64,000 nt of DNA from NCBI GenBank assembly GCA_944358305.1, contig CALVQK010000005.1:16385-80384 (forward strand), in the 5' to 3' direction. Shown here piece after piece: positions 10,531 through 54,065 of this stretch (its first letter is position 1; every line of letters starts with the position of its first letter). The position numbers were made by a program, and so were the translations under genes. This DNA is from an uncultured Bacilli bacterium (lineage in GTDB: Bacteria > Bacillota_I > Bacilli_A > RF39 > UBA660). The notes beneath the pieces are model-generated. The model did not search any database, had not been told where the DNA came from, and saw only the letters and a list, made by a program, of their open reading frames with translations.

Positions 10531-10714
10531 GGATGATGCAAAAAGTTAAAAAACTTGTAATTTTTAAAATTGACTATACTTTTAAAGACCAATATCTTAA
10601 ATTGAACTAGCCAATTAAGAAAATTGATAGGTATTTTTAAGATCAATTTATAAAATTGTCTTTTTGCAATATCTTTATGTATTTGATAACTTAATTGCAG
10701 AAAGGAGAAATCTT

Positions 10715-11545
10715 ATGAATAAAGTACCTAGATTTATATCATTAATGGCAGATACAACTGCAAAAGCTTTAATTAAAGATGATAACTATAGATGGTTTTA
10801 TGAAGAGGTTATTAAGTTTAGAACGGGTGTTGACTTGAAAGGTTATCAGTTAATGGATCCTGAACTTAATACTGGTAATAGGGGTAAAGATTATAGGTTA
10901 GATTTAATATTTATCAATAAGACTAAGTTATTTAACTTAGAATTAAATAGGTTTGTTTATCCACATACCTTTATTAAAAGTCTTAAATATGCTTTAAGGT
11001 TAGCGGGCAATGGTTATATTAAAGGAGATCAATATTATCAAAGATTTGTAACACAACTTAATCTAAATTATAAAATAATGAGTGAGAAAGTAAAATGGCA
11101 AAACTCGAGAGATTATAAGTTAGAAGACTGTAAATACAAAGATAAATTAAAAGATATAAGAGTATTAACAACAAATTTATTAGATTATAAGGGAATAGTT
11201 TATGATGGTACTAATAAATATGAAACATATTTATCAATGTTAACAGCTGAATCATATGAAGAAATGGAGAAAATAATTGGAGATTTAAAGGAGGGTAAAA
11301 TAATTATGGAAAAGTTAAAAGAATTGGGACTTGATGATGAGTTTGGTGCAATATATGATGAAGAGATAGTACATAAGATGGAGATAAACTCTGCTCGAAG
11401 TGATGGCAGAAAAGAAGGAAGAAAGGAAGGCAAAATAGAGACAACTACTTCTATTGCTAAAGTAATGTTAAAAGCTGGAGAGAGTGTTAATAAAATAAAA
11501 GAGTATACAGGCCTTTCAGAAAAACAAATAAGTATGCTAATATAG
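10715..11545 (+). CDS. Rpn-family nuclease/putative transposase, copy 2. The true start is the second M; the ORF track start at 10664 lies in the duplicated leader.
   Basis: Same N-terminus MNKVPRFISLMADTTAKALIKDDNYRWFYE and the same C-terminal TGLSEKQISML tail. Confidence 0.65.
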   Translation: MNKVPRFISLMADTTAKALIKDDNYRWFYEEVIKFRTGVDLKGYQLMDPELNTGNRGKDYRLDLIFINKTKLFNLELNRFVYPHTFIKSLKYALRLAGNGYIKGDQYYQRFVTQLNLNYKIMSEKVKWQNSRDYKLEDCKYKDKLKDIRVLTTNLLDYKGIVYDGTNKYETYLSMLTAESYEEMEKIIGDLKEGKIIMEKLKELGLDDEFGAIYDEEIVHKMEINSARSDGRKEGRKEGKIETTTSIAKVMLKAGESVNKIKEYTGLSEKQISMLI

Positions 11546-11654
11546 GTTAATAGTGTTTCTATTCTTTAAAAGTTTTAAATATTTCTTTATAATTTGTAAG
11601 AATATAGAGGAGATAGCGAATATATATTTAAAATAGCTAAAGGAGATAATTATT

Positions 11655-11882
11655 ATGGAAAAGTTAAAAGAATTAGGACTTGATGATGAGTTTGGTATGT
11701 ATTATGATGCTGAGATAGTACATAGAAAAGAATTAAACTCTGTAAAAAAGGAGGGCAGAAAGGAAGGCAAAATAGAGACAACTACTTCTATTGCTAAGAA
11801 TCTTCTTAATATGGGTCTTTCTAAACAAGATGTAATGAAAGCGACAGGTTTATCTAAGAAACAACTAACTATGTTAATGTAG
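11655..11882 (+). pseudogene. Truncated third Rpn copy. Only the C-terminal ~75 aa (DUF4351-like tail) is retained.
   Basis: MEKLKELGLDDEFGMYYDAEIVHRKELNSVKKEGRKEGKIETTTSIAK is near-identical to the tail of copy 1. A terminator hairpin follows at 11908..11930. Confidence 0.6.
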
Positions 11883-12025
11883 ATTGGTGGTGTTTTTTAT
11901 ATATTAAGCAGTTTATGACTGCTTTTTTCATGTTAAAAAAATTACTACCAAAAATTGGTAATTTGTTGTACAATAGTATTTGATAAAAATAGAGTAAGGC
12001 TATAGCGATATTTTGGAGTAAAGGC

Positions 12026-12376
12026 TTGGTGGAATTTATGAAGAAGTATACACCTTTAAATATATATAATTTCTATAAAAGAGATTATGCTAAGTACTTG
12101 TTGCTGGTTAAGAAAAAAGATAAACTTATAACTTATAATACTGACGCTAAAATAGTATCTTATCTTTTTAAAATATATTATTTTGAAGAACTTAGTTTAG
12201 ATCAAAATTTGTTAACAGAGTTATTAGAACTTAAAGAAATACATCATTTTAATATTGCTGTAGTCGTCTCCTCTAAAATAAGAGAATATTATTGTTATAA
12301 AAATAGTGATTATTTGAAACTTAAAAATAATAGTAAAAGATATGTTAAAGAATTAGAGGTGATTTCTAATGGATAA
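12026..12376 (+). CDS. Hypothetical 116-aa protein, translationally coupled to avd (stop overlaps the avd start). Possible DGR accessory gene.
   Basis: Overlapping ORFs 12026..12376 / 12369..12728 / 12709..13824 suggest one operon. Confidence 0.35.
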   Translation: MVEFMKKYTPLNIYNFYKRDYAKYLLLVKKKDKLITYNTDAKIVSYLFKIYYFEELSLDQNLLTELLELKEIHHFNIAVVVSSKIREYYCYKNSDYLKLKNNSKRYVKELEVISNG

Positions 12377-12728
12377 GAATGACTCTTTTAAAATTATGAA
12401 GAATACAAAATTACTTGTTTTTGATGTAGTAGAATTTTCTAAGAATTTTCCTAAAGGAGAAGCGGTGTTAAAGAAAAATCTACAGGAAGAGTTATTTAAT
12501 CTTGTTAAATTATTAAATTCATATATTGTTAATAAAGGAAGTGCAAGAATTAAAGAAAAACATGTTAAAGACTTTATTGTTAGTCTTTCGATGGTAGATT
12601 TTTATTTTGAGTATTTATACTTAAATAAAATTATTAGTTTTAAAAAATATAAAGCTTTGGTTGATGATGTTATTACAATTAGAAAGCTTGCTTATGGAGT
12701 ATTAAAAAATGAAAAAGAGTTATCTTAA
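12369..12728 (+). CDS. avd: Accessory variability determinant (Avd)-like protein (four-helix bundle, 23S rRNA IVS protein family).
   Basis: 119 aa, basic. FSKNFPKGE resembles the KFPKxE(R/K) motif of Avd/IVS proteins. Immediately upstream of and overlapping the DGR RT gene. Confidence 0.6.
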   Translation: MDKNDSFKIMKNTKLLVFDVVEFSKNFPKGEAVLKKNLQEELFNLVKLLNSYIVNKGSARIKEKHVKDFIVSLSMVDFYFEYLYLNKIISFKKYKALVDDVITIRKLAYGVLKNEKELS

Positions 12729-13824
12729 ATATGATGTTTTAGTTGATTATGAAAAAGTATTATCTAGTTATAAAGATGTAGTTAGGAATACAGAACACAA
12801 AGAGAAATTGTTTAAATACAATTTGTTTTTGTCTAGTAATTTAATAGAAATATATAATGATTTAAAGAATAAAAAATATCATCATGGTAAATATAATATA
12901 TTCTTAATTAAAGATCCTAAATATCGGGTTATTATGAGTGAAAACTTAAATGATAAGATAGTTAATCAAATGGTTAGTGAACATATTTTAAAGCCAGTTT
13001 TAGAGCCTAGACTTATAGATAGTAATACTGCTACTAGAAAAGATATGGGAAGTAAACATGCCTTTAATTTATGCAAGAAGTATATTATGAAATTAAAAAG
13101 AGAAAATAAAGATATTTATGTTCTTAAGTTTGATATAAAAAAATATTTCTATAATATAGATCATGATATTTTGTTATCTAAGTTAGAGAAGATCTTTGTA
13201 GATAAGGATATTATGGCTTTATTAAAAGATATTATATATAGTTCTAATCTTGCTTATGTTAATAGGGAAATCGATACAATTATAAATAGAGAATTAAAGA
13301 AAGATTTATCTAGTTATCATAAAAGTGAACTTTTAAAAGTACCTAGATATCAATATCATAAAGGACTTGCTATTGGTAATGTTACAAGCCAAATACTTGC
13401 TATCTTTTATTTGAATAGAATAGATCATTTTATTAAAGAAAATTTAGGTTGTAAGTATTATATTCGTTATATGGATGATGGTATTATTTTTGATTATGAT
13501 AAAGAGAAATTAAAACGTATTAAGAGTGCTATTGAGAAGGAACTTTTAAAAGAAAAATTGGAACTTAATAAAAAAACAAATATTTATAAACTTAGTAATG
13601 GTTTTACTTTTATAGGATATAGATTTATTTTAAGAAATAATAAACTTGTTATTAGAATCAATAATAAAGTTAAGACTAGAATTAAGAGAAAGATTAAATA
13701 TTTGAGTGTTTATGATAAAGAGAAACTTATTAGAGTTAAAGCAAGTTACTATGGTTATATGAAAAGAGCATCTACTAAATTCTTACAGCATAAACTTGCT
13801 ATTAAAGATAAGCAAAGTTATTGA
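12709..13824 (+). CDS. DGR-type reverse transcriptase.
   Basis: RT motifs FDIKKYFYNIDHD, the DGR-specific GLAIGNVTSQ (I/LGxxxSQ in place of QGxxxSP), and YIRYMDDGIIF (YxDD). 371 aa with no maturase or endonuclease domains. Confidence 0.85.
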   Translation: MKKSYLKYDVLVDYEKVLSSYKDVVRNTEHKEKLFKYNLFLSSNLIEIYNDLKNKKYHHGKYNIFLIKDPKYRVIMSENLNDKIVNQMVSEHILKPVLEPRLIDSNTATRKDMGSKHAFNLCKKYIMKLKRENKDIYVLKFDIKKYFYNIDHDILLSKLEKIFVDKDIMALLKDIIYSSNLAYVNREIDTIINRELKKDLSSYHKSELLKVPRYQYHKGLAIGNVTSQILAIFYLNRIDHFIKENLGCKYYIRYMDDGIIFDYDKEKLKRIKSAIEKELLKEKLELNKKTNIYKLSNGFTFIGYRFILRNNKLVIRINNKVKTRIKRKIKYLSVYDKEKLIRVKASYYGYMKRASTKFLQHKLAIKDKQSY

Positions 13825-13869
13825 TATTTTTCTTTCTTTATAGTAAAATCTTGTTAAAGGAGAAATGAT

Positions 13870-14415
13870 ATGAATAGTGAATTTATAAATGAAGTAGAAA
13901 ATAAAATGAAAGGGGCTCTTAATAACCTAGAAAAACGTTTTACAACTGTTAGAGCAGGACGTGCTAATCCTTCTAGTTTAGATGGTGTATCTGTTGATTA
14001 TTATGGTTCTATGACGCCTTTAAAAAGTCTTGCTACTATATCTGTTCCAGAGGCAACTCAATTATTAATTAAACCTTTTGATAGAGGTTGTTTGAATGAT
14101 ATAGAGAAAGCAATTATAGCAGCTAATCTTGGTTATAATCCTTCTAATGATGGAGAAACTATTAGAATAGTTATACCAGCTTTAACTGAAGAAAGAAGAA
14201 AAGAACTTACTAAGCAAGTTAAAGCTATGGCTGAGGATGCTAAAGTAGTAATTAGAAATATTAGACATGAAGCTAATGAGAAAATAGAAAAGATGGAATT
14301 ATCTGAAGATGAAGAAAAAGGTATGATGAAGGATGTTCAAGATTTAGTTAATGAATATAATAAAGATATAGATAATCTTTATAAGGATAAAGAGAAGGAA
14401 TTAATGACAGTTTAG
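13870..14415 (+). CDS. frr: Ribosome recycling factor.
   Basis: RANPSSLDGVSVDYYGSMTPLKSLATISVPEA and RNIRHEAN motifs. Confidence 0.9.
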   Translation: MNSEFINEVENKMKGALNNLEKRFTTVRAGRANPSSLDGVSVDYYGSMTPLKSLATISVPEATQLLIKPFDRGCLNDIEKAIIAANLGYNPSNDGETIRIVIPALTEERRKELTKQVKAMAEDAKVVIRNIRHEANEKIEKMELSEDEEKGMMKDVQDLVNEYNKDIDNLYKDKEKELMTV

Positions 14416-14427
14416 AGGTATGTTAAT

Positions 14428-14456
14428 TTGACATTTTCTTTTTAACATGTTATATT
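14428..14456 (+). promoter_or_regulatory. Sigma-A-type promoter (TTGACA, 17 nt spacer, TATATT) driving the repeat RNA and toxN-like gene.
   Basis: ttgacattttctttttaacatgttatatt. Confidence 0.5.
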
Positions 14457-14480
14457 ATGGATACATAAGAGATTATGTTT

Positions 14481-14584
14481 AAAAAAGCTGGTGATTCCAA
14501 CCATAATAGGAACTTAAAAAAGCGGTGATTCCGACCATAACAGGAACTTAAAAAAGAAACTAGAGATGCAAAACTCTAGTTTTT
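14481..14584 (+). ncRNA. Type III antitoxin-like RNA. Two tandem direct repeats (35 nt and 34 nt, aaaaaagc(t)ggtgattccRaccataaYaggaactt) plus a partial third, followed by an intrinsic terminator.
   Basis: Units at 14481..14515 and 14516..14549. Terminator hairpin aactagag/ctctagtt with a T-run at 14558..14584, directly upstream of a ToxN-like ORF. Confidence 0.55.
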
Positions 14585-14646
14585 ATAAATTTCCTATTGC
14601 GAACATTTGTTCTTTTATGTATAATAATTAACTAAGTAAAGGAGGA

Positions 14647-15024
14647 ATGTTTGTGAAACAAGAATTACGTTTAGTTAAAATTGATTCTAATTATTGTGAT
14701 TATTTAAGAAAATATGATTCAAAAGTTCCATATAATTTTGATAGAAAAAGAAATAGACCTTTTGTAGGTGTATTGTTTGAAGTTAATGGGTGTAAATATT
14801 TTGCACCACTTGCTAGTCCTAAGACTAAATATTTAAAAATGCATAATAGTATTGATTTCTTTAAGTTGAAAAACGGAGAACTTGGAGCGATTAATTTTAA
14901 TAATATGATTCCTGTAACATTAAATAATGTTATTATGTTAGAACTTTTGGAAGATAATAAAACAAAAGAGGAAAGAATATATATAAAGATGTTAAAAGAG
15001 CAATTATATTTTGATTGTAAATAA
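14647..15024 (+). CDS. ToxN/AbiQ-family endoribonuclease toxin (type III TA / abortive infection). Likely start is GTG at 14653.
   Basis: KVPYNFDRKRNRPFVGVLFEVNGCKYFAPLASPK closely parallels the ToxN N-terminal core (KVP...F(I/V)G(I/V)..E..G.KY.APL.SPK). AGGAGG lies 9 nt before the GTG. Confidence 0.6.
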   Translation: MFVKQELRLVKIDSNYCDYLRKYDSKVPYNFDRKRNRPFVGVLFEVNGCKYFAPLASPKTKYLKMHNSIDFFKLKNGELGAINFNNMIPVTLNNVIMLELLEDNKTKEERIYIKMLKEQLYFDCK

Positions 15025-15183
15025 AAAACTTCCTATTAATATCTATAATAGATGTTGTAATTTTCTTTTGTTAGAGGAGAAATGTAAAGTTTATAATAAA
15101 TATTTTGAAAATCAAGTATTAAATTGATTTTATTACAGTTATATGTTATAATATAAAGCGTTTTATAAAGGGGTGATGGTACT

Positions 15184-15738
15184 TTGGAAAGAAATATGGA
15201 TGAAGATTTTGATTTGCCTTCAAAAATGCAAAAAATGAGAAAAGATATTGTTTCGGATAGAATAAGAAGTAAAATTAGTATATCTTCTACTGATCTTGAT
15301 CATTTATTAAGAGGGATTAATAAAGATGTATATGATACGATGGATGATTTAGAAGAATGGAATAGTTTAAGAACTAAAATATTATTAAATTTTAATTTAG
15401 GTTTAACTTATGTTTTGCCTAATCGTGAAAATTTTAGAGATATGATATTTGTTGGTAAGCGCAGTGTTGATTTATCTGTTGATAATTATAGAAGAGTATT
15501 AACTGCTGTTGACTTTGTTCATGAGTATAGTATGACAAAAAATATTTATACTTTAATTGATCAGTTATATTATGCCGAAACTCATGCTAGAAATTGCCTT
15601 TATTATATGGATGATTTAAAGGTGAAAATAAATACTAAATACTATGATGGTAAGTTTAATGAAAGATATGTTAAAGAAATGGAAAATAGTAGAGAAAAAG
15701 TTTTATCTTTAGAAAAAAACTATGTGAAGGGGGAATAA
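15184..15738 (+). CDS. Hypothetical protein (184 aa), first gene of a two-gene unit.
   Basis: ORF only. TTG/ATG start with aaagggg RBS. Confidence 0.35.
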   Translation: MERNMDEDFDLPSKMQKMRKDIVSDRIRSKISISSTDLDHLLRGINKDVYDTMDDLEEWNSLRTKILLNFNLGLTYVLPNRENFRDMIFVGKRSVDLSVDNYRRVLTAVDFVHEYSMTKNIYTLIDQLYYAETHARNCLYYMDDLKVKINTKYYDGKFNERYVKEMENSREKVLSLEKNYVKGE

Positions 15739-15740
15739 AA

Positions 15741-16280
15741 ATGCAAGATATGAATCAAGTTGCAGATTTGTATGTTGAAACTACAAAGGCATATTTAGAT
15801 ATTTTAATAGAAAGAGGAGATTTAAAAGCGTGCGAAAAACATTATTTAGAAATATTGGATAAAGTAAAAAAAGAAACTTTAGAAGTTTCTAAAGAGTTTT
15901 CTAAAACTAGAATTATGACTTTAAAAGCTCTTGCTTTTGTTAGTAGAAAACTAAATATTGGTGAAGATTTGAATATTGTAGGTAATGTGGCTCCAAGCCT
16001 TGCGGATACTTTATTAGATAATTATGATCGAGTTAGGAAAGGAATTGCTGTTACTAGTAAAAATATGAGTTATGATAATATTTGTACTTTGATAAGCCAA
16101 AAAGCAGAATCAGATAAATATCTTGTTAGTTTTTCATCATTTCTAGGTGATACAGTTCATGGTTCTGATGGCTTAGGGCCTAGTTACAATTATTATTTAG
16201 CTTGTCAAAATTCTAGAGATAAAATTTTAGAACTTGATTCTAAGTATTGTACAGAAAAGACTAAAGATTTACATTATTAG
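15741..16280 (+). CDS. Hypothetical protein (179 aa), separated from the upstream ORF by 3 nt.
   Basis: ORF only. Confidence 0.35.
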   Translation: MQDMNQVADLYVETTKAYLDILIERGDLKACEKHYLEILDKVKKETLEVSKEFSKTRIMTLKALAFVSRKLNIGEDLNIVGNVAPSLADTLLDNYDRVRKGIAVTSKNMSYDNICTLISQKAESDKYLVSFSSFLGDTVHGSDGLGPSYNYYLACQNSRDKILELDSKYCTEKTKDLHY

Positions 16281-16349
16281 TATTTACAATAAGCTTTTAA
16301 ATGTGGTATAGTAATTTTTGAAATGACTATGATTAAGAAGTAGTAGTAA

Positions 16350-16548
16350 ATGATTTTTTTAAAGAGAGTCTGTGGTTGGTGGAAACAGATAAAAATAGTT
16401 TATGAATTCGTCTTAGGAGTTCCTATAACAAAATTATAGGCGTTGTTTATCGCGTTAAGATTTTAGAGAAATAGTTAATAACTATAAATTAAGGTGGTAC
16501 CGTGTAGAAAACTACGCCCTTAAGTTATAGTTATTTTTTATTTTAGGA
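16350..16548 (+). promoter_or_regulatory. T-box riboswitch leader (tRNA-Phe specifier likely) with terminator/antiterminator, upstream of HAD-pheS-pheT.
   Basis: Conserved T-box sequence aattaaggtggtaccgtg at 16488..16505. Terminator aactataa..ttatagtt plus T-run ends around 16548. A TTC triplet is present in the upstream stem region (gaattcgtc). Confidence 0.7.
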
Positions 16549-16555
16549 GGATTTT

Positions 16556-17188
16556 ATGACTAAACGATTTATTTGGGATTTTGATGGTACTATTGTAGAT
16601 GGAGATTTTTCTCTTGAAGAGAAGTTATTTAAAGATAATTTAAGTGAAGAAGATTTTTTAAGGTTTAATGAGAAGTGGCCTATGTTACTTAGTGTTTATG
16701 AGAAAGAGTTTCCTAGATATGATAGAAGAATGCTTAGTGAATTTCTTAGTACTAGTACCGGTGTTAATATTAGTAAAGAATTAATTGATGAGTGGTCTAG
16801 ATATATGATTAATGTTAATGAGACTATTCATCCTGGTGCTTTTGAAGTGCTTGATTATTTACAGAGTAAAGGAATAGAAAATGTAATTTATTCTAATGCT
16901 TTTACTGATACGCAAATAGGAAGAGTTAAAAAAATAGGACTTGATTCTTATTTTAAAGAAATAATAGGGGCGGAGGTTGCTGTAAAACCAAATTCTTTAG
17001 GATTTATTGCAGCTTGTGGGTCATATAGCCCTAGAGAATGTGTTGTGATTGGAAATGATTATGAGAAAGATATTTTAGGCGCGAAGAAAGCAGGGTTAGA
17101 TGCTATTTATTATTGCCCTAAAGGTTTAGATAAGAAAGTAGATATTCCTAGTGTAAAAAGATTAATTAAGATAAAGGAGATGTATTAA
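16556..17188 (+). CDS. HAD-superfamily hydrolase.
   Basis: IWDFDGTIVDG motif I; GNDYEKD motif IV region. Confidence 0.7.
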   Translation: MTKRFIWDFDGTIVDGDFSLEEKLFKDNLSEEDFLRFNEKWPMLLSVYEKEFPRYDRRMLSEFLSTSTGVNISKELIDEWSRYMINVNETIHPGAFEVLDYLQSKGIENVIYSNAFTDTQIGRVKKIGLDSYFKEIIGAEVAVKPNSLGFIAACGSYSPRECVVIGNDYEKDILGAKKAGLDAIYYCPKGLDKKVDIPSVKRLIKIKEMY

Positions 17189-17189
17189 T

Positions 17190-18239
17190 ATGAATATAGA
17201 AGATATTAAAAAAGAGATAGAAAAAGAAATAGATGCTGTTAAAGATTTAAAAAAATTAAATGAATTACACGTTAAATACTTAAGTAAAAAGGGAATTATT
17301 ACAGAACTTAATAGTAAAATTAAAGATGTTCCTAATGATAAGAAAAAAGAATTTGGAATGGAAGTTAATTCACTAAGAACTTACTTTAATGAAAAGTATA
17401 ATGCCCTAAAAGATAAGTTTGAAGAAGATGAGTTAAATAAAAAACTTGAAAGTGAAGCGATTGATATTAGTTTACCTAGTACTAAGGTAGAAGTTGGGAC
17501 TCCTCATATATTAGAAAAATTAATAGAAGAAGTCGAAGAGATCTTTATGTCGATGGGTTATGATGTTGTTGATGGCCCTGAAGTAGAAGAAGATAAATAT
17601 AATTTTGAAATGTTAAATATACCTAAAGGTCATCCGGCAAGAGATGCTCAGGATACTTTCTATATTGAAGGAGAAGAGATCTTGCTTAGAAGTCAAACAT
17701 CGCCTGTACAAGTTCGTAGTATGTTAAAAGCAGAAGGTAAAAAACCAGTTAGAGTAATTTGCCCTGGTAAGACTTATAGAAGAGATGATGATGATGCAAC
17801 TCACTCTCATCAATTTATGCAAATAGAAGGATTATTAGTTGATAAGGATATTTCTTTAGCTGATTTAAAAGGGACTTTTGAAGTAGTATTTAAAAAACTA
17901 TTTGGAGATAGTGTTGAGGTAAGACTTAGACCTAGTTATTATCCATTTACAGAGCCTTCTGTTGAAGTAGATATTAGTTGTTTTAATTGTAAAGGTGAAG
18001 GATGTAATCTTTGCAAAAATACAGGATTTATTACCATTTGTGGAGCAGGTGTTGTTCATCCTGATGTTCTTCGTATGGGAGGATATGACCCTAAAGTGTG
18101 GAGTGGCTTTGCTTTTGGTTTTGGAGCAGAACGTGTAGCCATGCTTAAATATGGTATTAATGATATTAGAGTTTTCTATAATACAGACTTAAGAGAAGCT
18201 CGTGTATTTGATAGAAAGGAGATTAGTAGTAATGATTAA
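17190..18239 (+). CDS. pheS: Phenylalanine--tRNA ligase alpha subunit.
   Basis: Class II aaRS motifs: HPARD, FRPSYYPFTEPS, GAGVVHP, GFAFGFGAERVAM. Confidence 0.95.
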   Translation: MNIEDIKKEIEKEIDAVKDLKKLNELHVKYLSKKGIITELNSKIKDVPNDKKKEFGMEVNSLRTYFNEKYNALKDKFEEDELNKKLESEAIDISLPSTKVEVGTPHILEKLIEEVEEIFMSMGYDVVDGPEVEEDKYNFEMLNIPKGHPARDAQDTFYIEGEEILLRSQTSPVQVRSMLKAEGKKPVRVICPGKTYRRDDDDATHSHQFMQIEGLLVDKDISLADLKGTFEVVFKKLFGDSVEVRLRPSYYPFTEPSVEVDISCFNCKGEGCNLCKNTGFITICGAGVVHPDVLRMGGYDPKVWSGFAFGFGAERVAMLKYGINDIRVFYNTDLREARVFDRKEISSND

Positions 18240-20598
18240 TTTAGAATGGGTAAAAGATTATATTGATATAAGTGATCAAGATTTACATGAATTATCGGTT
18301 AAAATAACAGAAGCAGGTATTAATGTTGAGAAGGTTATTACTAATAAGATAGATAATCTAGTTATTGGTGAAGTTAAATCTTGTGTAGATCATCCTGATA
18401 GTGACCATTTACATTTATGTCAGGTTGATGTAGGTAATGATAAATTACAACAAATAGTTTGTGGAGCGCCTAATGTAAGGGAAGGTATAAAAGTAATAGT
18501 AGCTTTACCTGGGGCAGTTTTGCCAGGAGATTTTGCAATTAAAGCTAGTAAGATTCGTGGAGTAGAATCTAATGGTATGATTTGTGCTTTATATGAACTT
18601 GGCCTTGAAGAGAAAAATGATGAAACTTATGCTAAGGGAATTGAAGAGTTAGGAAGCAATGCTGTTGTAGGAAGTGATCCTTTAGTGTATTTGGGACTTG
18701 AAGATACTTTATATGAGTTAGATATTCATAAACATCGTAATAATGATTGTTATTATCATATTGGTTTTGCTTATGAAATTTCTGCAATACTAAATAGAAA
18801 AGTAAAATTACCTGATTTATCTTATAGCGAAGATAAAGACAATATTAATAATCATTTTAAATTAAAGGTAGAAACTTCTAAATGTCCTTATTATTTAGCG
18901 AAGATGGTTACTAATGTAGAAATAGGTGAATCACCTGACTTTATTAAAAGAAGATTATTATCAGTTGGAATGAGACCTATTAATAATGTTGTTGATATTT
19001 CTAATTATGTTATGTTAGAGTTCGGTCAACCACTTCATTTCTTTGATAAAGATTCTTTGGGTGATGAAATTTTAGTAAGAGATGCTAAAGAGGATGAAAA
19101 AATAGTTACTTTAGATGGTAAGGAAAGAACTCTTAAAGCTAGTGATATTGTAATTACAGATGGAAAGAAACCTGTATGTGTTGCTGGGGTTATGGGAGGA
19201 CTTACTACTGAAGTTGAGCCTACTACTAAAACTATTTTAATTGAGTCTGCTATTTTTGATCCTGTTAGTATTAGATATACAGCTAGTCACTTAGATCTTA
19301 GAAGTGAAGCTAGTATAAGATATGGTAAAGGTCTTAGTTATGAATATACTAACTATGCTATTAATAGAGCTTGCCATTTGCTTGAAAAATATGCTAATGC
19401 GACAGTTTTATCTGGAATGGTTAGTTATGAAAATATTGATAAGACTCCTAAAGTTGTAGAGTTTTATCCAATAGAAGTAGATAAAATGTTAGGTATTAAG
19501 ATAGATGAAAAAGATATGATTCATGAGTTAGAGAGACTTGATTTTCCTTATACTATTACTGATGGTAAGTTTAGGGTAACTATTCCTAGTAGGAGACTTG
19601 ATATTGAATCTAATGTTAATGATATTGCTGAAGAGATTGGAAGACTTTATGGCTATCAAAATATTAAAGGGACTCTTCCTAAAGTAGAAATGAGAGATGG
19701 AAATTATATAGGTGATGTTAAATATCGTAAAGAAATATCTAAAAGACTTAGAAGTTTAGGATTAAATGAAGTTAAAACTTATACTTTAGTATCACCTAGT
19801 ATGGCTAGTATGTTTGATTATGAAGACAAGGAAAGAATTGTTTTGCCTAATCCGATGAGTGTTGATAAAAGTGTTATTAGAACTAGTTTATTACCATCAC
19901 TATTAAATGTTTATAATTATAATAAAGCTCGTAAGGTTGATGATATTAATATTTATGAGATTGCTAAAACATATGATAAAGATTATAATGAAGAGTCAAA
20001 AATTGCTTTCTTAATGAAAGGTAATTATGTTGTTAATTCTTGGAAAGGCTCAATGAAAGTAGACTTTTATTTAATAAAAGGAATTGTCGAAAGTATTCTT
20101 GATTATTTAGGTTTTAAAAACCGTTATAGTTTTGTTAAGAGTACAGTTAAAGATTTACATCCAGGAGTATCTGCAGATATCCTTCTTGATCGTAAAAGAA
20201 TTGGTATTGTAGGTAGAGTTCATCCTAAAAAATGTAGCGATGAAGTATATGTGTGTGAGTTATCTTTAAATGCTTTAATGACTAAGGTTAAACCGCTAAA
20301 ATATAAAGAAGCTTCAAAATATCCAACTATTGTTAAAGATGTTGCATTTATTGTTCCTAAAGATATGGCTTCAAGTGAGGTAGAATCTGTTATTAAAAAA
20401 ACTGGTGGAAGACTACTTAATGATATAAAAGTATTTGATGTTTATGAAAAGCTTGATAATAATAAAAAATCTATTGCTTATAATCTTACATTTATGGATA
20501 GTAGTAGAACTCTAACTGATGATGAAGTTATGAGTGTATTTGATAATATTATTAAGAAAGTAACTACTACTTTAGAGGTGGAATTAAGAGATAAATAA
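18232..20598 (+). CDS. pheT: Phenylalanine--tRNA ligase beta subunit. The internal ATG at 18232 is likely; the track start at 18202 overlaps pheS.
   Basis: tRNA-binding domain GEVKSCVDHPDSDHLHLCQVDVG, B3/4 and B5 domains, C-terminal FDV anticodon-binding domain. Confidence 0.9.
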   Translation: MINLEWVKDYIDISDQDLHELSVKITEAGINVEKVITNKIDNLVIGEVKSCVDHPDSDHLHLCQVDVGNDKLQQIVCGAPNVREGIKVIVALPGAVLPGDFAIKASKIRGVESNGMICALYELGLEEKNDETYAKGIEELGSNAVVGSDPLVYLGLEDTLYELDIHKHRNNDCYYHIGFAYEISAILNRKVKLPDLSYSEDKDNINNHFKLKVETSKCPYYLAKMVTNVEIGESPDFIKRRLLSVGMRPINNVVDISNYVMLEFGQPLHFFDKDSLGDEILVRDAKEDEKIVTLDGKERTLKASDIVITDGKKPVCVAGVMGGLTTEVEPTTKTILIESAIFDPVSIRYTASHLDLRSEASIRYGKGLSYEYTNYAINRACHLLEKYANATVLSGMVSYENIDKTPKVVEFYPIEVDKMLGIKIDEKDMIHELERLDFPYTITDGKFRVTIPSRRLDIESNVNDIAEEIGRLYGYQNIKGTLPKVEMRDGNYIGDVKYRKEISKRLRSLGLNEVKTYTLVSPSMASMFDYEDKERIVLPNPMSVDKSVIRTSLLPSLLNVYNYNKARKVDDINIYEIAKTYDKDYNEESKIAFLMKGNYVVNSWKGSMKVDFYLIKGIVESILDYLGFKNRYSFVKSTVKDLHPGVSADILLDRKRIGIVGRVHPKKCSDEVYVCELSLNALMTKVKPLKYKEASKYPTIVKDVAFIVPKDMASSEVESVIKKTGGRLLNDIKVFDVYEKLDNNKKSIAYNLTFMDSSRTLTDDEVMSVFDNIIKKVTTTLEVELRDK

Positions 20599-34712: not shown

Positions 34713-35255
34713 ATGGAATTAAAAGGTTCAAAGACTGAACAAAATTTAATGACTGCATTTGCAGGAGAGAGCCAAGCTCGTAATAAGTATACTTACTATG
34801 CTTCAAAAGCTAGAAAAGATGGTTATGAACAAATAGCAGCTATATTTGAAGAAACTGCTAATAACGAGAAGGAACATGCTAAACTTTGGTTTAAAGAACT
34901 TCATGGTGGGGATATTCCTGATACTATGACTAACTTAGAGGATGCAGCTGCTGGTGAAAACTATGAATGGACTGATATGTATAAAGGATTTGCTGAGACT
35001 GCTCGTGAAGAAGGATTTGATCGTTTAGCATTCTTATTTGAAAGTGTAGCAAAGATTGAGAAAGAACATGAAGAAAGATATTTAACACTTCTTAAGAATG
35101 TTAAAGATGATAGAGTATTCCATAAAGATGGAGATAAGATTTGGATTTGTCGCAATTGTGGACATGTATATGTTGGTAAAGATGCTCTTGATGTTTGTCC
35201 AGTATGTAATCATCCACAAAGCTTTATGGAAGTTAAAGCTAATAATTATGAATAA
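34713..35255 (+). CDS. rbr: Rubrerythrin.
   Basis: Di-iron ferritin-like E..H motifs ([16 protein letters not shown]) and C-terminal rubredoxin fold CRNCGH..CPVCNHP. Confidence 0.9.
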
Positions 35256-35381
35256 AAGGACTTGTTTAAGTTCTTTTTATTTATGTAATTAAATGGATAC
35301 TAGATAGAAATATCTAGTATTTTTTAAATTGAAATATTGGACTCTATGTGTTAATATTATTAATAGATAGAATATAAGTAT

Positions 35382-37214
35382 ATGAAAATGGGTAACCTAA
35401 GTAGTAAAGGAGTTACAGATATGACAAAGAAAAAATATATAGTAATATCAGTAGTAATAATATTAATAAGTATAATAGCATTAATAGGTGCAAGTTATGC
35501 CTTATTAACAATGACTATAGAGGGAGATAAAGAAATAACTCTAACAGCAGGAATACTAAAAGTTGATTTTAGTGAAGGTGATAATATAAGTATAGAAAAT
35601 AGCGCTCCTATGTCTGATAAAGAAGGTCTACAAACAACTCCTTATACTTTTACAGTAACAAATACAGGAAATATAAATGCTTATTACCATGTATCATTAG
35701 AAGAAGATAGTAATAATACATTAAGTAATTCAAATTTAAAGATGAAAATAACAGGAAATAATGGCTATGATAGTGGAGTAATAAGAGTAAGTGATTATGG
35801 GATAGGTTCTTTTGAAATAATAGGAGAAGATGTATTAGAGCCAAGCGATACAGTAACATATACTTTGTATATGTGGTTAGATGAGGATGCAGGGAATGAG
35901 GCACAAGGAACAATATATCAAAGTAAGATAGTAGTAACAAGTTATGATAGAGAACAGAATAGTCCAAATGCTCCAATGTTAGATGAAGGAATGATACCAG
36001 TAACATATGATGGAAGTAATTGGGTAAAAGCAGATAGAACAAATATAAATAATAGTTGGTATAACTATAATGATTTAATGTGGGCAAATGCTGTAACAGT
36101 ATCAGAATCAACAAGAAGCACATATAAGAGTGCAGCAGTAGGAACAGTAGTAAATATGGATGATATAGAGACAATGTGGGTATGGATACCAAGATATTCA
36201 TATACAATAGGAAGTGAAGATGGGACTAATTACTATGGAAAACAAGGGACATTTCTAGATACAACACCTACTCAGGCTTTACCAGGAGAAATAGATGTAA
36301 AGTTTGTTAGTGAGAATACAAAAGATAGAGGAAGTGCAAAATACATAGTAAGTGAAGGAATAAGTGATGATAGTTGGTATACGCCAGATGCTTTTACATT
36401 TGGAGATGAAGAGTTAAGAGGAATCTGGGTAGGAAAATTTGAGACAAGTAGCAGTAATCCAAATGAAGAAGATGGCGGAGGGAATACTACCGAGTTAGAT
36501 CCAATGATTAAACCAAATGTCACAAGTTGGAGAGGAATAAATGTAAGTAATGCCTTTAATGTGAGTTTAAAGATGAATAATAATGGAAATAGATATGGAA
36601 TAGAGAGTACAACCGATACCCATATGATGAAGAATAGTGAATGGGCACTAGTGGCATATCTTACACAATCAAAATATGGAAAATTAGGGAATAGTAATTT
36701 TACAGGTGCAAATAAAGAAATATATGTTAATAAGTCGAACGATTTGATAACAGGTTGTAGTTATGGAGCACCTAGTAATAGTAATACAGATTATGGATGT
36801 CAATATCAATATAATGTAGAGATAAATGGAACAGGAGCCTCAACCACAGGAAATATCTATGGAATATATGATATGAGCGGTGGTGATTGGGAATATGTTA
36901 TGGCAAATTATAATGATGTAGTAGGAGAAAGTGGATTTACTTCGATGCCTGATGCAAAATATTATGATAAATATACAAGTAATAATATAAATACAGCGTG
37001 TGATGGAAATATATGTTTATCACATAATTTGTTAGAAACAAAAAAATGGTATAATGATTTTCACACTTTAGTTTCTGAGGAGTATCCTTGGTTAGCAAAT
37101 GGGGGTAGTTGTATTCAGGATAATACAAATGCTGGAATATATGCTATTTCTAGAACTCTTAATAAAGGTGCTGCAAGAGATTCAACTTTCCGTTTAGTAG
37201 CAACAATAAGGTAG
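35382..37214 (+). CDS. Paralog of the DGR target family: SipW-cognate/TasA-like N-terminus with an FGE-sulfatase-like C-type-lectin-fold C-terminus. Likely start ATG 35421.
   Basis: LIGASYALLTMTIEGDKEITLTAGILKVDF matches the TasA-like N-region. C-terminus YGIYDMSGGDWEYV and NGGSC...RDSTFRLVATIR parallel the FGE-domain GNVWEW / RGGSW...GFR signatures. Confidence 0.6.
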   Translation: MKMGNLSSKGVTDMTKKKYIVISVVIILISIIALIGASYALLTMTIEGDKEITLTAGILKVDFSEGDNISIENSAPMSDKEGLQTTPYTFTVTNTGNINAYYHVSLEEDSNNTLSNSNLKMKITGNNGYDSGVIRVSDYGIGSFEIIGEDVLEPSDTVTYTLYMWLDEDAGNEAQGTIYQSKIVVTSYDREQNSPNAPMLDEGMIPVTYDGSNWVKADRTNINNSWYNYNDLMWANAVTVSESTRSTYKSAAVGTVVNMDDIETMWVWIPRYSYTIGSEDGTNYYGKQGTFLDTTPTQALPGEIDVKFVSENTKDRGSAKYIVSEGISDDSWYTPDAFTFGDEELRGIWVGKFETSSSNPNEEDGGGNTTELDPMIKPNVTSWRGINVSNAFNVSLKMNNNGNRYGIESTTDTHMMKNSEWALVAYLTQSKYGKLGNSNFTGANKEIYVNKSNDLITGCSYGAPSNSNTDYGCQYQYNVEINGTGASTTGNIYGIYDMSGGDWEYVMANYNDVVGESGFTSMPDAKYYDKYTSNNINTACDGNICLSHNLLETKKWYNDFHTLVSEEYPWLANGGSCIQDNTNAGIYAISRTLNKGAARDSTFRLVATIR

Positions 37215-39077
37215 GTGAATGTAATGAAAGAAGCAATAAAGAAAAATAAGAAATATATAATAATAGGGCTTGTAATAATAATTCTTCTTTTAATAGGAAT
37301 AGCATTCGCTTACCTAACAACAACACTACAAGGAGATAAAGAATATTTAGTAAGAGCAGGAACATTAGACCTAGTATTAGATGAAGGAAATGAACTTGCT
37401 TTAGAGAAACAAATACCACTTTCAGATAATGAAGGAATGAATCTTAATGGTTTTAGCTTTAGTATAGTAAATAATGGAAAGATAGATACAGATTATACAA
37501 TTTATTTAGATGATATGGAATTAAGTGAAGGAGAAAGTAGAATACCAGACTCTAGTATAAGATATAGTCTAACAAAAAATGATGAAACATTTATGACTAG
37601 GAATATGACAACCATGGGAAGTAATCCAAATAGAAGAGTAGACTTTGGAACAATCGCACCTGATGAAACTATTAACTACACCTTAAAGATCTGGATAGAC
37701 TATGATGCAACAACTGAAGAAGCAAGTGGTAAAGTATTTAAAGGGAAGTTAAGAGTAGTAGCAACTCAATCAGTAGGAGAAGCAGCAGGTACAGTATTAC
37801 TTGATAATATTCCAGAAGAAAACCAATATGATGATGGAACAGATACTTTTATTACAGGAGAAGATCCAGATAATTACATTTGGTATTCTGGTAAACTATG
37901 GAGAGCAGTATCAGTTAATAATGAAGCAAAGACAGTAAAATTAGTAACTCATGGGAATATAAGTTTTATGTCATATGATGACGATAGTACTGCTTTTGAA
38001 GGTAGTTATATGGAAGAGTGGTTAAATGATACAACAGTAGATGGTTTTCTTGGTAATTTAAGAAATTATGAAAACTTTATAGTAACCGATGCAAAGTGGG
38101 ATGCCACTGAGGATAATAGAGAATTAGGTAATATAACAAGACCTAATGGGACTACAATTGTGACAGATGCTGTAGGGTTACTTAACATATATGAATACCA
38201 GATGAGTTACAGAGGAGCTGATTATAGTAATGGATATTTAAATAATGGACTTGACTGGTGGATTATTACTCCTTATAGCTCAGTATATCCTAGATGCATT
38301 GCTAGTGGAGGAAATAGTAGTAATGTCTCTAATTTGAATTATAGATATGGAATTCGTCCAACAATAAATTTAAAAAGTGATGTAAAGATAGTATCAGGGA
38401 ATGGAACAGAAGACGATCCATATAGATTAATGAGCGATAGTGATGAAGACTTATCAGGTGTTAAGTTAAATACAAGATACAGTGGAGAATATATTCGTTT
38501 TGGAACAGGAGAAAATTATTTGTATAGAATAGTAAGTCATGAAACAAGAGGCTTAACAAAAATAACCAGTGCTGAACCATTAAAAGAAAATGGTGTATTT
38601 AAAACTATTTCTTTTGGCAATGATACCTATTATTCTAGTACTAATACTATTGGAACCTTTTTAAATGGTGAATATTTATCTTCTTATATCGATAGTAATC
38701 ATATTAATATGATAGAAGATAGTAGTACTTGGTATTTGGGAGAAGTGCGCAGTAGAGCGAGTTATAAACTAGCCAAATATGCTAATTATGATATGGCAAA
38801 CTATGCTAAGAGCACTAATGCAAAAATCGGTTTATTGAGATTTGGAGAATTAATGTCAGGACAATTCAATGTTTTTAGTAGTAATACTGATTATTGGTTA
38901 TTAACTCCATTTGAAAATGGACTCAATTATGTTAATGTGTATTCTGGGAATACAACAAATCCCAATCCGTATAATAATTATTTTGGTATTAAACCATCTC
39001 TAAACCTAAAATCAAATGTCATCATAATATCTGGCATAGGTACGAAAGAAGATCCATTTATTATTACTTTATCATAA
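37215..39077 (+). CDS. Paralog of the DGR target family: SipW-cognate/TasA-like N-terminus plus two DUF1566-like modules each ending in (I/V)RPxINLKSxV..SGxGTxxDP.
   Basis: LIGIAFAYLTTTLQGDKEYLVRAGTLDLVLDEGNELAL resembles the TasA signal/N-domain. WWIITPYSS..YGIRPTINLKSDVKIVSGNGTEDDPY and YWLLTPFENG..FGIKPSLNLKSNVIIISGIGTKEDPF repeats. Confidence 0.6.
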   Translation: MNVMKEAIKKNKKYIIIGLVIIILLLIGIAFAYLTTTLQGDKEYLVRAGTLDLVLDEGNELALEKQIPLSDNEGMNLNGFSFSIVNNGKIDTDYTIYLDDMELSEGESRIPDSSIRYSLTKNDETFMTRNMTTMGSNPNRRVDFGTIAPDETINYTLKIWIDYDATTEEASGKVFKGKLRVVATQSVGEAAGTVLLDNIPEENQYDDGTDTFITGEDPDNYIWYSGKLWRAVSVNNEAKTVKLVTHGNISFMSYDDDSTAFEGSYMEEWLNDTTVDGFLGNLRNYENFIVTDAKWDATEDNRELGNITRPNGTTIVTDAVGLLNIYEYQMSYRGADYSNGYLNNGLDWWIITPYSSVYPRCIASGGNSSNVSNLNYRYGIRPTINLKSDVKIVSGNGTEDDPYRLMSDSDEDLSGVKLNTRYSGEYIRFGTGENYLYRIVSHETRGLTKITSAEPLKENGVFKTISFGNDTYYSSTNTIGTFLNGEYLSSYIDSNHINMIEDSSTWYLGEVRSRASYKLAKYANYDMANYAKSTNAKIGLLRFGELMSGQFNVFSSNTDYWLLTPFENGLNYVNVYSGNTTNPNPYNNYFGIKPSLNLKSNVIIISGIGTKEDPFIITLS

Positions 39078-39092
39078 TAAAAAGAATTTCTG

Positions 39093-39794
39093 TTATTTAG
39101 AAATTCTTTTCTTATGAATTAATATAGGTAATTTGACTTTAGGTGTAACTTGGTTATTTATTATTTCTACTTCATCTTGATATTCTTCTTTGATAGCAGA
39201 ACAGAAGTCTACTGCCCAATAATCTCCAAACCAGTGGGGATACTTTTCTGTACTATGATCACAATTACAAAAAGCGATTAGTAGGTTTTTATTTTCTTCT
39301 ATACCTTTTAAAGTCATATCAATAGAAGCTTCACATGGATATAAGCCAAATATAGTGTCTATACTTTTAATATTGGTACTTTCTGTAAATTTATCTTTAA
39401 CTATTTTAATCTTTTTATCTATACTAAATACATCTCTTTTTTCGTATATTGTTAAATTATAATCATTAGTTTTATGATTATCTCTTATAATTTCTGCAAG
39501 CCTTGGATAAGGCCCACTTCCTACTTCTAAGATATTTCCTTTGATAAAACCTAGTTGTTCAAGTAATTGATAAAATTTAAAGTATATATCATTTCCTTGC
39601 TTTAAAATGCCAAATTTTGAAGCAAGAGCGGCCATTTCTGTGTGCATAATATTTTTAGCATTTAAAAGTTGATCAAAAAGAAAAGTAAAATAGAGCATTT
39701 CAAATTCTTGATCATGATATAACTTATCATTTTCTAATATAAATTTAATAATATTTTCTTTTTCTTTAAAATATTTTTCCTCATCAATAACCAT
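39093..39794 (-). CDS. Hypothetical protein, possibly a class I SAM-methyltransferase-like fold.
   Basis: ILEVGSGPYPRLAE resembles MTase motif I. Otherwise unassigned. Confidence 0.3.
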   Translation of the reverse strand: MVIDEEKYFKEKENIIKFILENDKLYHDQEFEMLYFTFLFDQLLNAKNIMHTEMAALASKFGILKQGNDIYFKFYQLLEQLGFIKGNILEVGSGPYPRLAEIIRDNHKTNDYNLTIYEKRDVFSIDKKIKIVKDKFTESTNIKSIDTIFGLYPCEASIDMTLKGIEENKNLLIAFCNCDHSTEKYPHWFGDYWAVDFCSAIKEEYQDEVEIINNQVTPKVKLPILIHKKRISK

Positions 39795-52620: not shown

Positions 52621-53214
52621 ATGAAAAAGAAAGAAGAAATTTTAAATATTGCTAGTAAAAATGGTGGTTATATCACAACCAAAGAGTTGACTAAATATAA
52701 TATAAATAGTCGTTTTTTGACATCTTTAGTAAAAGAAAAAAAACTAAGTAGAGCATCAAGAGGTTACTATATTTTACCAAATGTTTTTCCTGATGATTTC
52801 TATATTATTCTTTCAAAATGCAAGAAAGCTGTTTTTTCAGATGCTACTGCACTTTATTTTCATAATCTTTCTGATAGAATACCTTTAGTATATGATATTA
52901 CGTTGCCTTATGGTTATGGTAATTGTTATAAAGATATGTCTAATGTTTCTCTTCATTATGTAAAAAATGCGAATATTGATTTAGGTATGATAGAAATAGA
53001 GTCTCCTTTTGAAATGAAAATTAAAACTTATGATATAGAAAGAACTGTTTGTGATATTATTAAAAATAAAAATAAAATGGATATTGAAGTTTTTACTAAA
53101 GCTTTAAAAGAATATTCAAGATTAAAAAATAAAGATCTTAATAAATTAATGAAATATGCTAAAAGATTAAATGTAGAGAAGAAAGTAAGAGAATATATGG
53201 AGGTGTTGTTGTAA
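52621..53214 (+). CDS. AbiEi-family antitoxin/transcriptional regulator (type IV TA).
   Basis: N-terminal wHTH ILNIASKNGGYITTKELTKYNINSRFLTSLVKEKKLSRASRGYYIL typical of the AbiEi N-domain. Confidence 0.6.
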   Translation: MKKKEEILNIASKNGGYITTKELTKYNINSRFLTSLVKEKKLSRASRGYYILPNVFPDDFYIILSKCKKAVFSDATALYFHNLSDRIPLVYDITLPYGYGNCYKDMSNVSLHYVKNANIDLGMIEIESPFEMKIKTYDIERTVCDIIKNKNKMDIEVFTKALKEYSRLKNKDLNKLMKYAKRLNVEKKVREYMEVLL

Positions 53215-53291
53215 TTAATCAAGACAAATTAAAAAGTTTAGTTTCTAAAAAGACGTTAGGAGGTACATATAAATCACAAATATACTTTCAA

Positions 53292-54065
53292 TTGTTTTAT
53301 TTTGAACGACTATTAGAAAGAATTTCTAAAAGTAAATATAAAAATTATATTATATTAAAAGGTGGATTAGTTTTAACTTCAATTATTGGTAGTGATGATA
53401 GAACTACTAAAGATATGGATGCAACGGTAAAAGGTATTCCTCTTTCTGAAAATATAATTAAAGAAATATTTAAGGAAATATTTAGCATTGATTTGGATGA
53501 TGGTGTTACTTTTGAACTTATTAGTATTAAAGATATTAGGCTAGAAGATAAGTATGGTGGTTTTAGATTAAATATTTTATCAAAATTAGGTAATAATAAA
53601 ACATATATTACAGTTGAACTAACAACTGGTGATGAAATAACTCCTAGAGAGATAAAATTTAGTTATAATTCGATTTTTGAAGATAAAAAAATAACTATTA
53701 TGGCATATAATATAGAAACTATACTAGCAGAAAAATTTCACTCTATTGTTTTTAGAGGTAGTTTGAATACAAAGTTGAAAGATTTTTATGATGTTTATAT
53801 GTTATTTAATTTTAAAGAAGATATTATAGATAAAAAATTATTGGTAAAAGCAATCGAGAACACTTTTAAAAAGAGAGATACTTTAATAGATATAGATGAA
53901 TTTGTTAATCTTATAGACGATTTATATAATAATGATTCTCTTAAAAAGTTATGGAGTGAATATCAAAATAAAAATACATATGCCAAAGGTATAAGTTTTG
54001 AAGATACAATAGATTCTGTTAAAATAATAGTTAATATACTAGAAGAAACATTAGTTACTGTTTAA
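53292..54065 (+). CDS. AbiEii/AbiGii-family nucleotidyltransferase toxin.
   Basis: ILKGGLVLTSIIGSDDRTTKDMDATV (KGG..L......R.S.D(I/M)D) NTase signature. Paired with the upstream abiEi. Start uncertain (TTG). Confidence 0.6.
   Translation: MFYFERLLERISKSKYKNYIILKGGLVLTSIIGSDDRTTKDMDATVKGIPLSENIIKEIFKEIFSIDLDDGVTFELISIKDIRLEDKYGGFRLNILSKLGNNKTYITVELTTGDEITPREIKFSYNSIFEDKKITIMAYNIETILAEKFHSIVFRGSLNTKLKDFYDVYMLFNFKEDIIDKKLLVKAIENTFKKRDTLIDIDEFVNLIDDLYNNDSLKKLWSEYQNKNTYAKGISFEDTIDSVKIIVNILEETLVTV

Follow-up and report, generated by a model that had tools for sequence, protein, structure and literature searches.

Two adjacent genes of an uncultured gut Bacilli lineage, here called P1 and P2, probably belong, without being diversified themselves, to a family of lectin-type surface proteins that includes targets of diversity-generating retroelements (DGRs), and the loops near the ends of their lectin modules are best read as fossil variable regions (VRs), a reading to which we give a probability of about 0.7. 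A DGR is a retroelement that hypermutates a target protein gene, and the VR of its target ends in a GC-rich targeting sequence, the initiation of mutagenic homing (IMH) site. The genes lie in a 64-kb stretch of contig CALVQK010000005.1 (the window; GC 27.8%), which serves as our frame of reference, and the named homologues of their family belong to Candidatus Onthousia. P1 and P2 follow each other with essentially no intergenic gap. The probable start of P1 is the ATG at 35421 (M14), giving a 597-aa protein that is also present in public assemblies (P0001), and that of P2 is the ATG at 37224, giving the 617-aa form annotated in its orthologues. Descent from a diversified ancestor has good support for P2 and moderate support for P1, where this comes from phage relatives and from a codon signature at the level of the family. 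Coordinates of all features are collected in Table 1.

The window also contains a genuine DGR whose target is a paralogue of P1 and P2, and this provides an active reference. The VR of this target is 82% identical to the template repeat (TR) downstream of it, and TR adenines account for 17 of the 18 mismatches. When the 1719-nt target gene was compared with that of another sample with identical TR and reverse transcriptase (RT), all 23 nucleotide differences fell inside the VR, and between-sample differences of the gene were confined to gene positions 1561–1627. The resident DGR is thus active, as its cognate VR changes between samples. This VR has a GC content of 0.45 and a GC-rich end, and its TR is built with AAT codons. 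A fourth paralogue, of which the window holds the start only, is near-identical to the DGR target across the N-terminal ~200 residues. The last 17 nt of its VR (TGACGCCGTGCGTCCAG) equal the TR end exactly, and upstream of them 17 of 64 non-adenine positions have changed and 3 nt have been deleted; this VR is half-decayed.

A preliminary description of this DNA held that P1 and P2 share an N-terminal region with the DGR target and that this region is of the TasA/SipW type. The sharing was borne out by two methods: BLASTP matched P1 to P2 (E=3e-19) and the DGR target to P1 (E=2e-7), and hhalign aligned the P1 family with the DGR target over 194 columns (probability 99.6%, E=9e-24) and the P2 family with the same protein at a probability of 85% (E=6e-6). 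The region consists of a hydrophobic helix followed by (S/A)(Y/F)A(A/L/Y)(F/L) and then ..TxGxL, and AlphaFold2 (AF2) modelled residues ~39–175 of P1 with predicted local distance difference test (pLDDT) values of 70–89. The assignment to the TasA/SipW type did not hold in the same way. The TIGR04088 model for SipW-type signals (cutoff 19 bits) gave no match in P1 or P2 and scored just under its cutoff in the DGR target (17.3) and the fourth paralogue (17.8), and the Peptidase_M73/TasA-camelysin model (PF12389) matched only weakly, in 3 of 46 P1 orthologues and 2 of 66 distant relatives. A Foldseek search with the N-domain model found a TasA-like archaeal bundling pilin, 7ueg, as its top match, at a marginal E=5.6e-4 and a template modelling (TM) score of 0.40. 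The family is therefore like TasA/camelysin, AbpA and SipW signal peptides in its N-terminal pattern, its sub-cutoff TIGR04088 and M73 scores and its top fold match, and unlike them in that no match to these models passed its curated threshold; the likeness in fold is weak, since generic jelly-roll carbohydrate-binding modules score close behind. In a further difference from TasA/SipW proteins, 17 of 66 distant relatives of P1 carry the P1-type module joined to the N-terminal methylation motifs of type IV pilins (best E=2e-8). With its scores near threshold, a TasA/SipW-like N-terminus is a reasonable lead only.

Beyond the shared region the two proteins differ in their modules. P2 had been described as holding two internal modules that end like the VR protein and belong to DUF1566. 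Both modules and their endings stand: the modules are related to each other (E=4e-11), and both resemble the tail of the DGR target at their ends (E=8e-5 and 0.013). DUF1566 (PF07603) was dropped, as it gave no match at E≤10 with the isolated modules or at E≤1 with whole proteins. P2 belongs instead to DUF6273 (PF19789), scoring 26.5 bits as a whole protein, in two stretches, against a gathering cutoff of 23.5; its orthologues, 64–98% identical, mostly carry the same precomputed annotation, and the C-terminus of the DGR target also matches the DUF6273 model weakly. DUF6273 is a C-type-lectin-like DGR target domain with its VR at the C-terminal end (PMC10743442, PMC11792537).

P1 does not match DUF6273. 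Its C-terminal module had been compared with the formylglycine-generating enzyme (FGE) family, and the signature proved real and weak at once. Specifically, the module contains the motifs DAFTFG..GIWVGKFE, HMMKNSEW, GIYDMSGGDWEYV and GG...FRLV, and residues 196–610 match PF03781 (FGE-sulfatase) at 15.4 bits (E=0.016), under the gathering cutoff of 23.3. Such weak matches recur in 24 of 46 P1 orthologues (best E=4.9e-4) and 12 of 66 distant relatives, with a best E of about 4e-4 overall. At least 7918 homologues of P1 were scored, and the module has 3476 representative relatives at E≤1e-3. When varied relatives were cut to the module and combined in a profile (A6), this had a single match in the PDB, 5vf4_A (E=6.5e-4), which is TaqVP, the DGR variable protein of Thermus aquaticus. 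The motifs HPAF..G..W.GKF, H.M.N.EW.A.A.L and G.YD..G..WE.V align with TaqVP residues 58–76 and 109–208. P1 thus appears related to the FGE-type lectin fold, yet by the curated cutoff it lies outside PF03781. The same type of module also occurs in giant proteins of 3713–4516 aa (P0315, P0316, P0333), with 5–8 matched stretches in each.

It could be asked whether the likeness of P1 and P2 to DGR targets is superficial, their C-terminal regions having unrelated folds and the motifs arising by chance or composition. PDB searches with single sequences and with whole-protein profiles of P1 and P2 found no match, an NCBIfam scan of both whole proteins found no family, P1 falls below the PF03781 cutoff, and AF2 models of the lectin modules, each built from a 46-sequence orthologue alignment, reached pLDDT values of only 22–45; these models are unusable in the lectin modules, so the fold assignment rests on sequence and on the literature. 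We nevertheless regard unrelated folds as extremely improbable: DUF6273 scores above its curated cutoff in P2, the only PDB match of the P1 profile is itself a DGR variable protein with the canonical motifs aligned, and both proteins have relatives that are bona fide DGR targets, namely phage homologues of P1 (45% identity over 240 residues) and P2-like proteins of ~50% identity with TR/VR pairs. On sequence and literature, the modules of both proteins would have a C-type-lectin-like fold, with the predicted variable loop at the C-terminal end.

We located the VR-equivalent segments of P1 and P2 by column entropy in alignments of 46 orthologues each. Peaks of ~2.6–2.8 bits, against means of 0.88 and 0.98, were found at P2 residues 355–378 and 566–592 and at P1 residues ~565–590 (597-aa numbering), and they coincide exactly with the VR-equivalent positions. 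By the signs that mark an active target these segments appear silent. As had been noted before, they have neither a match to the resident TR nor a GC-rich IMH: in a scan of the whole window over the 64 non-adenine positions of the TR, the cognate VR matched at 63 and everything else at 34 or fewer, and blastn of P1 and P2 against the window found no template-like copy. The segments have a GC content of 0.28–0.36 and end in GGAATTCGTCCAACA, GGTATTAAACCATCT and ACTTTCCGTTTAGTA, where active copies end in GACGCCGTGCGTCCAG or GGCGTGCGACCATC. The template search covered the 64 kb and ~10 kb beyond one end. Population variation is likewise missing from the segments. In the seven-member cluster to which the P2 of the window belongs, 38 columns vary and none of them lies inside a segment, and in four clusters of distant P1 homologues (57–75% identical to P1; 7–15 members each) the tail segment is invariant. 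Three signs of an active DGR target, namely a cognate TR within the DNA searched, a GC-rich IMH end and variation in the VR, were thus not seen for P1 and P2.

Relatives of P2 in other genomes show what such segments look like when they are still templated. A scan of species-representative genomes found 326 family members, often many per metagenome-assembled genome (MAG), and we fetched 80 loci from among them. Five (L049, L054, L069, L070 and L085) have clear adenine-biased TR/VR pairs, in each case with two VRs within one gene and a single TR 90–270 nt downstream. In L049, 16 of 16 mismatches in one VR and 15 of 16 in the other are at TR adenines, and the other four loci are similar. The RT genes in L054, L069 and L070 are 41–43% identical to that of the window. 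The P2-type TRs encode SSSNVR(Y/N)VNNNGNANNNSPSSNSNGVR and are flanked by a motif that is conserved in seven loci; these conserved flanks were not found in the window. Near-identical pairs of P2-family proteins mostly have identical segments, with some exceptions: between P0267 and P0269, segment 1 accounts for 25 of the 83 nucleotide differences and segment 2 for 24, and the segments of these genes are GC-rich islands (0.55–0.62 against a locus mean of 0.26) with NNC codons. L004, the contig of a P2 orthologue with a switched module-1 segment, has no TR or RT within 18 kb, and L005 holds only a truncated TR fragment, with no RT among the neighbouring unannotated open reading frames (ORFs). 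An ungapped scan of the L049 TR against other GC-rich paralogues of the same MAG gave no match of at least 80%, so it does not demonstrate that one TR serves all paralogues. In L069, the P2-type TR is itself split into two parts (11907–11944 and 15351–15394; region 11907..18703) by an element with three tandem tyrosine recombinases, and a second recombinase trio lies between TR and RT. The break point is the palindrome AATTATAAGACATGTCTTATAATT, and the same boundary truncates the TR fragment of L005 (11953..12020).

For P1 the templated relatives are found in phages. Seven relatives of the module occur in viral contigs, six of which adjoin an RT, and all of these six except L090 have a TR/VR pair at the C-terminus. 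Mismatches fall on TR adenines in 19 of 20 cases in L089, 20 of 21 in L093 and 10 of 10 in L091, with a weaker bias of 23 of 31 (74%) in L087/L088. The phage VR comprises the C-terminal ~50 residues and aligns with the P1 tail between GG and FRLV. The phage relatives with a TR are 31–45% identical to P1. On chromosomes, P1-like genes lie directly upstream of P2-like genes, which makes the P1–P2 pair a conserved, multicopy cassette; it occurs at three loci in one MAG (L007, L008 and L009; BRZ_IG__bin14) and twice in tandem in L084. Where scored, the segments of these cassettes are AT-rich, except for one L008 module of intermediate GC content.

Between the templated and the silent state the family forms a series. 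Measured in 168 modules over the 87 nt that precede the G(V/I)RPSxNLK motif, GC content is bimodal: 77 modules are GC-rich, 17 are intermediate and 74 are AT-rich, and the two of the window's P2 stand at 0.33 and 0.28. Every major clade of a neighbour-joining (NJ) tree built from 76 two-module genes includes GC-rich members, among which AT-rich clades are nested, and the P2 of the window falls in an AT-rich clade that neighbours a GC-rich one. Two mixed genes (L023 and L042) have one module of each kind. The AT-rich segments also differ in composition from their surroundings. K, E, Q and M together make up 4.7% of residues in P2-type AT-rich segments, compared with 13.9% in the remaining parts of the proteins and 1.1% where the segments are GC-rich, and 5.7% of residues in P1-family tails, compared with 14.4%; in the segments of the window's P2 they account for 1 of 48 residues. 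Of the four-fold degenerate codons, 61% have a pyrimidine in last position in P2-type AT-rich segments against 37% (p=2e-35), and 72% do so in P1-type tails against 34% (p=3e-17), and 71% of third codon positions in P1-family segments are T. Degenerate copies of the TR-encoded scaffold (S.S.VR.V...G.A) are visible in many AT-rich modules. At the level of the family, marks of AAY-templated mutagenesis (Y, pyrimidine) are still present in the AT-rich segments.

The preliminary description had left three possibilities for P1 and P2: that they are decayed targets, that they are ancestral ones, or that a TR elsewhere serves them. We favour the first, and a number of points, besides the unusable models of the lectin modules, weigh against it. 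Some of them bear on whether P1, P2 or both are still diversified by a TR outside the window, through the resident RT or a second DGR. DGRs can act on remote targets, and our search reached no further than the 64 kb and ~10 kb past one end, so a remote TR is possible; many GC-rich relatives of P2 have no TR within 10 kb, which makes remote templating plausible in the P2 family. Given the AAT codons of the resident TR, one can conceive of a VR that is AT-rich and has many NNT codons, and the predominance of T at third codon positions in P1-family segments would suit it. The lack of variation in the P2 cluster is also weak evidence by itself, since ~3 variable columns would be expected by chance in 48 segment columns. 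Continued remote templating nevertheless seems improbable, given that the segments are identical in all seven members of that cluster, the tails are invariant in all four clusters of P1 homologues, and most near-identical P2-family pairs share identical segments. The segments of P1 and P2 end in nothing like the GC-rich GACGCCGTGCGTCCAG or GGCGTGCGACCA, the window has none of the conserved flanks known from the P2-type TR, and, as the cognate VR varies between samples, the same method would detect activity in the segments of P1 and P2.

The remaining points bear on a different account, in which neither P1 nor P2 was ever a target of a DGR: they would be paralogues of the ancestral type whose loops vary through diversifying selection or relaxed constraint, and DGRs would have been recruited later to sister lineages. 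Neither the copies in the window nor the 13 chromosomal P1-like genes have a TR, an IMH or a GC-rich island, and no TR-like copy of P1-like tails was found in any fetched locus; the P2-like genes directly 3′ of a P1-like gene are AT-rich where scored, with the one intermediate module already mentioned. For the window's P2 alone the bias at four-fold codons is not significant (8 of 18 against 79 of 203). The direction of change in the series is open to two reservations, as the NJ tree has no bootstrap support and retrohoming could in principle restore a GC-rich VR. We consider it unlikely all the same that these genes were never targeted. The pyrimidine-ending (NNY) bias at four-fold sites and the depletion of K, E, Q and M (4.7–5.7% against ~14%) are specific to the segments, and a bias at synonymous sites is not predicted by selection on a binding loop. 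The GC-rich, TR-compatible state occurs across all major clades and is joined by intermediate and mixed genes, and the degenerate TR-encoded scaffold persists in many AT-rich modules.

The reading of P1 and P2 as frozen former targets suggests the following course of events. The N-terminus of each protein, a short basic stretch and a hydrophobic helix, would serve as a membrane anchor or SipW-type signal, followed by the beta-sandwich and then by lectin-like modules, one in P1 and two in P2, that may bind ligands; surface location and ligand binding are thus presumed for both. In this family DGRs rewrite the loop that precedes the conserved end of each module. A single TR directly downstream of the P2-like gene in related genomes, encoding roughly SSSNVRNVNNNGNANNNSPSSNSNGVR, feeds both VRs by adenine-specific mutagenic retrohoming. 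In the window, P1 and P2 would have become disconnected from this process, lacking TR, GC-rich scaffold and IMH, and their loops would have drifted to the AT-rich composition of the genome and become fixed in the population. With TR and IMH lost and loops fixed, P1 and P2 are most likely surface binders with frozen specificities, which would stand alongside the target at 7243..9006 that the resident DGR still diversifies. A more far-reaching and rather doubtful possibility is a diversify-then-freeze cycle, in which a DGR would try out binding specificities in one copy or a few. Copies with a useful specificity would then lose TR homology and the IMH, cease to be templated, and be retained and even re-duplicated as fixed paralogues, so that P1 and P2 would be selected end products and not debris.

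Table 1. Features of P1, P2, the resident DGR and the fourth paralogue, in window coordinates.
Feature	Coordinates	Strand	Basis or remark
P1 gene, 610-aa ORF	35382..37214	+	N-terminal signal-anchor, beta-sandwich domain, one FGE/TaqVP-like C-type-lectin module (predicted)
P1 hydrophobic N-terminal helix and beta-sandwich domain, common to P2 and DGR target	35421..35951	+	BLASTP, hhalign
P1 C-terminal module, ~415 aa, predicted FGE/TaqVP-like lectin fold	35967..37211	+	Profile and motif matches
P1 VR-equivalent segment, aa 576–602, SCIQDNTNAGIYAISRTLNKGAARDST	37107..37187	+	Entropy peak; aligns with VR of phage homologue L087; probable fossil VR
P2 gene, 620-aa ORF from GTG	37215..39077	+	N-terminal signal-anchor, beta-sandwich domain, two DUF6273 modules
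P2 DUF6273 module 1, ends in GIRPTINLKSDVKIVSGNGTEDDPY	37812..38429	+	Pfam and module comparison
P2 VR-equivalent segment 1, aa 355–378, SSVYPRCIASGGNSSNVSNLNYRY	38277..38348	+	Entropy peak, 2.7 bits (mean 0.88); GC 0.33; probable fossil VR
P2 DUF6273-like module 2, ends in GIKPSLNLKSNVIIISGIGTKEDPF	38472..39074	+	Pfam and module comparison
P2 VR-equivalent segment 2, aa 567–590, ENGLNYVNVYSGNTTNPNPYNNYF	38913..38984	+	Second entropy peak; GC 0.28; probable fossil VR
Active DGR target, reference paralogue of P1 and P2	7243..9006	+	Contains VR 8834..8932
TR of resident DGR	9119..9217	+	Pairs with VR 8834..8932
Avd-like accessory gene	12369..12728	+	NCBIfam DivGenRetAVD, E=2.5e-4
DGR reverse transcriptase	12709..13824	+	Group-II-intron/Drt3a-type RT matches; RVT_1 in precomputed annotation
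Fourth paralogue, start only (runs off window)	63504..64000	+	Full 560 aa in L001 11076..12758

A scan for promoters and terminators over 35200..39200 found sites no more frequent than in shuffled sequence. Between its TR and its Avd and RT genes, the cassette of the resident DGR is interrupted by a tandem pair of genes of the Rpn family (PD-(D/E)XK transposase-like), at 9712..10530 and 10664..11545, and a third Rpn-family piece, a C-terminal fragment, follows at 11655..11882 (whole region 9516..11882). The copies are direct repeats with a spacing of 1003 nt and 71–92% identity, and several public assemblies of the window's strain end just upstream of this region. Elsewhere in the window, 14479..15024 looks like a ToxIN-like type III toxin–antitoxin locus, with a 34-nt tandem repeat of 2.3 copies (14479..14556) upstream of a 125-aa ORF (14647..15024) whose counterpart in L094 is annotated as PF13958 ToxN_toxin. 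At 52621..54065 lies an AbiEi/AbiEii-type pair (197-aa and 257-aa ORFs), as judged by precomputed Pfam matches on the identical genes of L001.

The closest known counterparts of P2 are the DUF6273 DGR proteins of gut phages, namely the tentaclins and the targets Lelie, CP11, Roos and Pioen of Faecalibacterium prophages. Like P2 they contain the Pfam domain, and they have their VR at its C-terminal end; the P2 modules and the window's VR protein end alike. P2 differs from them in being chromosomal and cellular, in having a hydrophobic anchor and a beta-sandwich instead of Ig or Fn3 tails, and in carrying two DUF6273 modules in tandem, for which no TR was found in the window and which in related genomes are both VRs of one TR. 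The counterpart of P1 is TaqVP (PDB 5VF4), with which its module has a series of motifs in common; in both, as in the phage homologues of P1, the variable segment is found at the very C-terminus, between RGG and FR(L/V)V. The P1 module differs from TaqVP in being far longer, with large insertions, in its fusion to an anchor and beta-sandwich, in scoring below the PF03781 cutoff, and in that no TR was found for it. FGE-type C-type-lectin variable proteins of DGRs also include TvpA of Treponema. Multi-target DGRs with paralogous targets, in which one TR serves several paralogous VRs, are known from Treponema denticola, Stenotrophomonas and others; the window represents the opposite end, with one active target, one partly decayed one and two fully AT-ameliorated paralogues.

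Much of the framework for these observations is documented already. Duplicated DGR targets are treated in the DiGReF survey and, in the tentaclin paper, in its introduction, and a few genes with two or three VRs have been reported; paralogous and remote targets, occasional multi-VR genes, and DUF6273 and FGE-type scaffolds are thus all established. What is added here is a decay series, both within one genome and across a family, together with simple signatures of former DGR targeting. Surveys of DGRs tally the TR/VR pairs that are active and give little information on the later fate of targets. The ~170 modules that run from GC-rich VR to AT-rich remnant form a data set for the rate of VR decay and for the signatures that persist (NNY codons and a scarcity of K, E, Q and M), and they allow a test of whether frozen copies stay under selection. 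These signatures could also reveal former DGR targets in genomes that have no retroelement. If the diversify-then-freeze cycle is true, a genome would gather a hard-wired archive of DGR-evolved binders beside the member that is still diversifying. For these uncultured gut Bacilli with small genomes, our findings suggest a large lectin-type surface repertoire, probably used for attachment.

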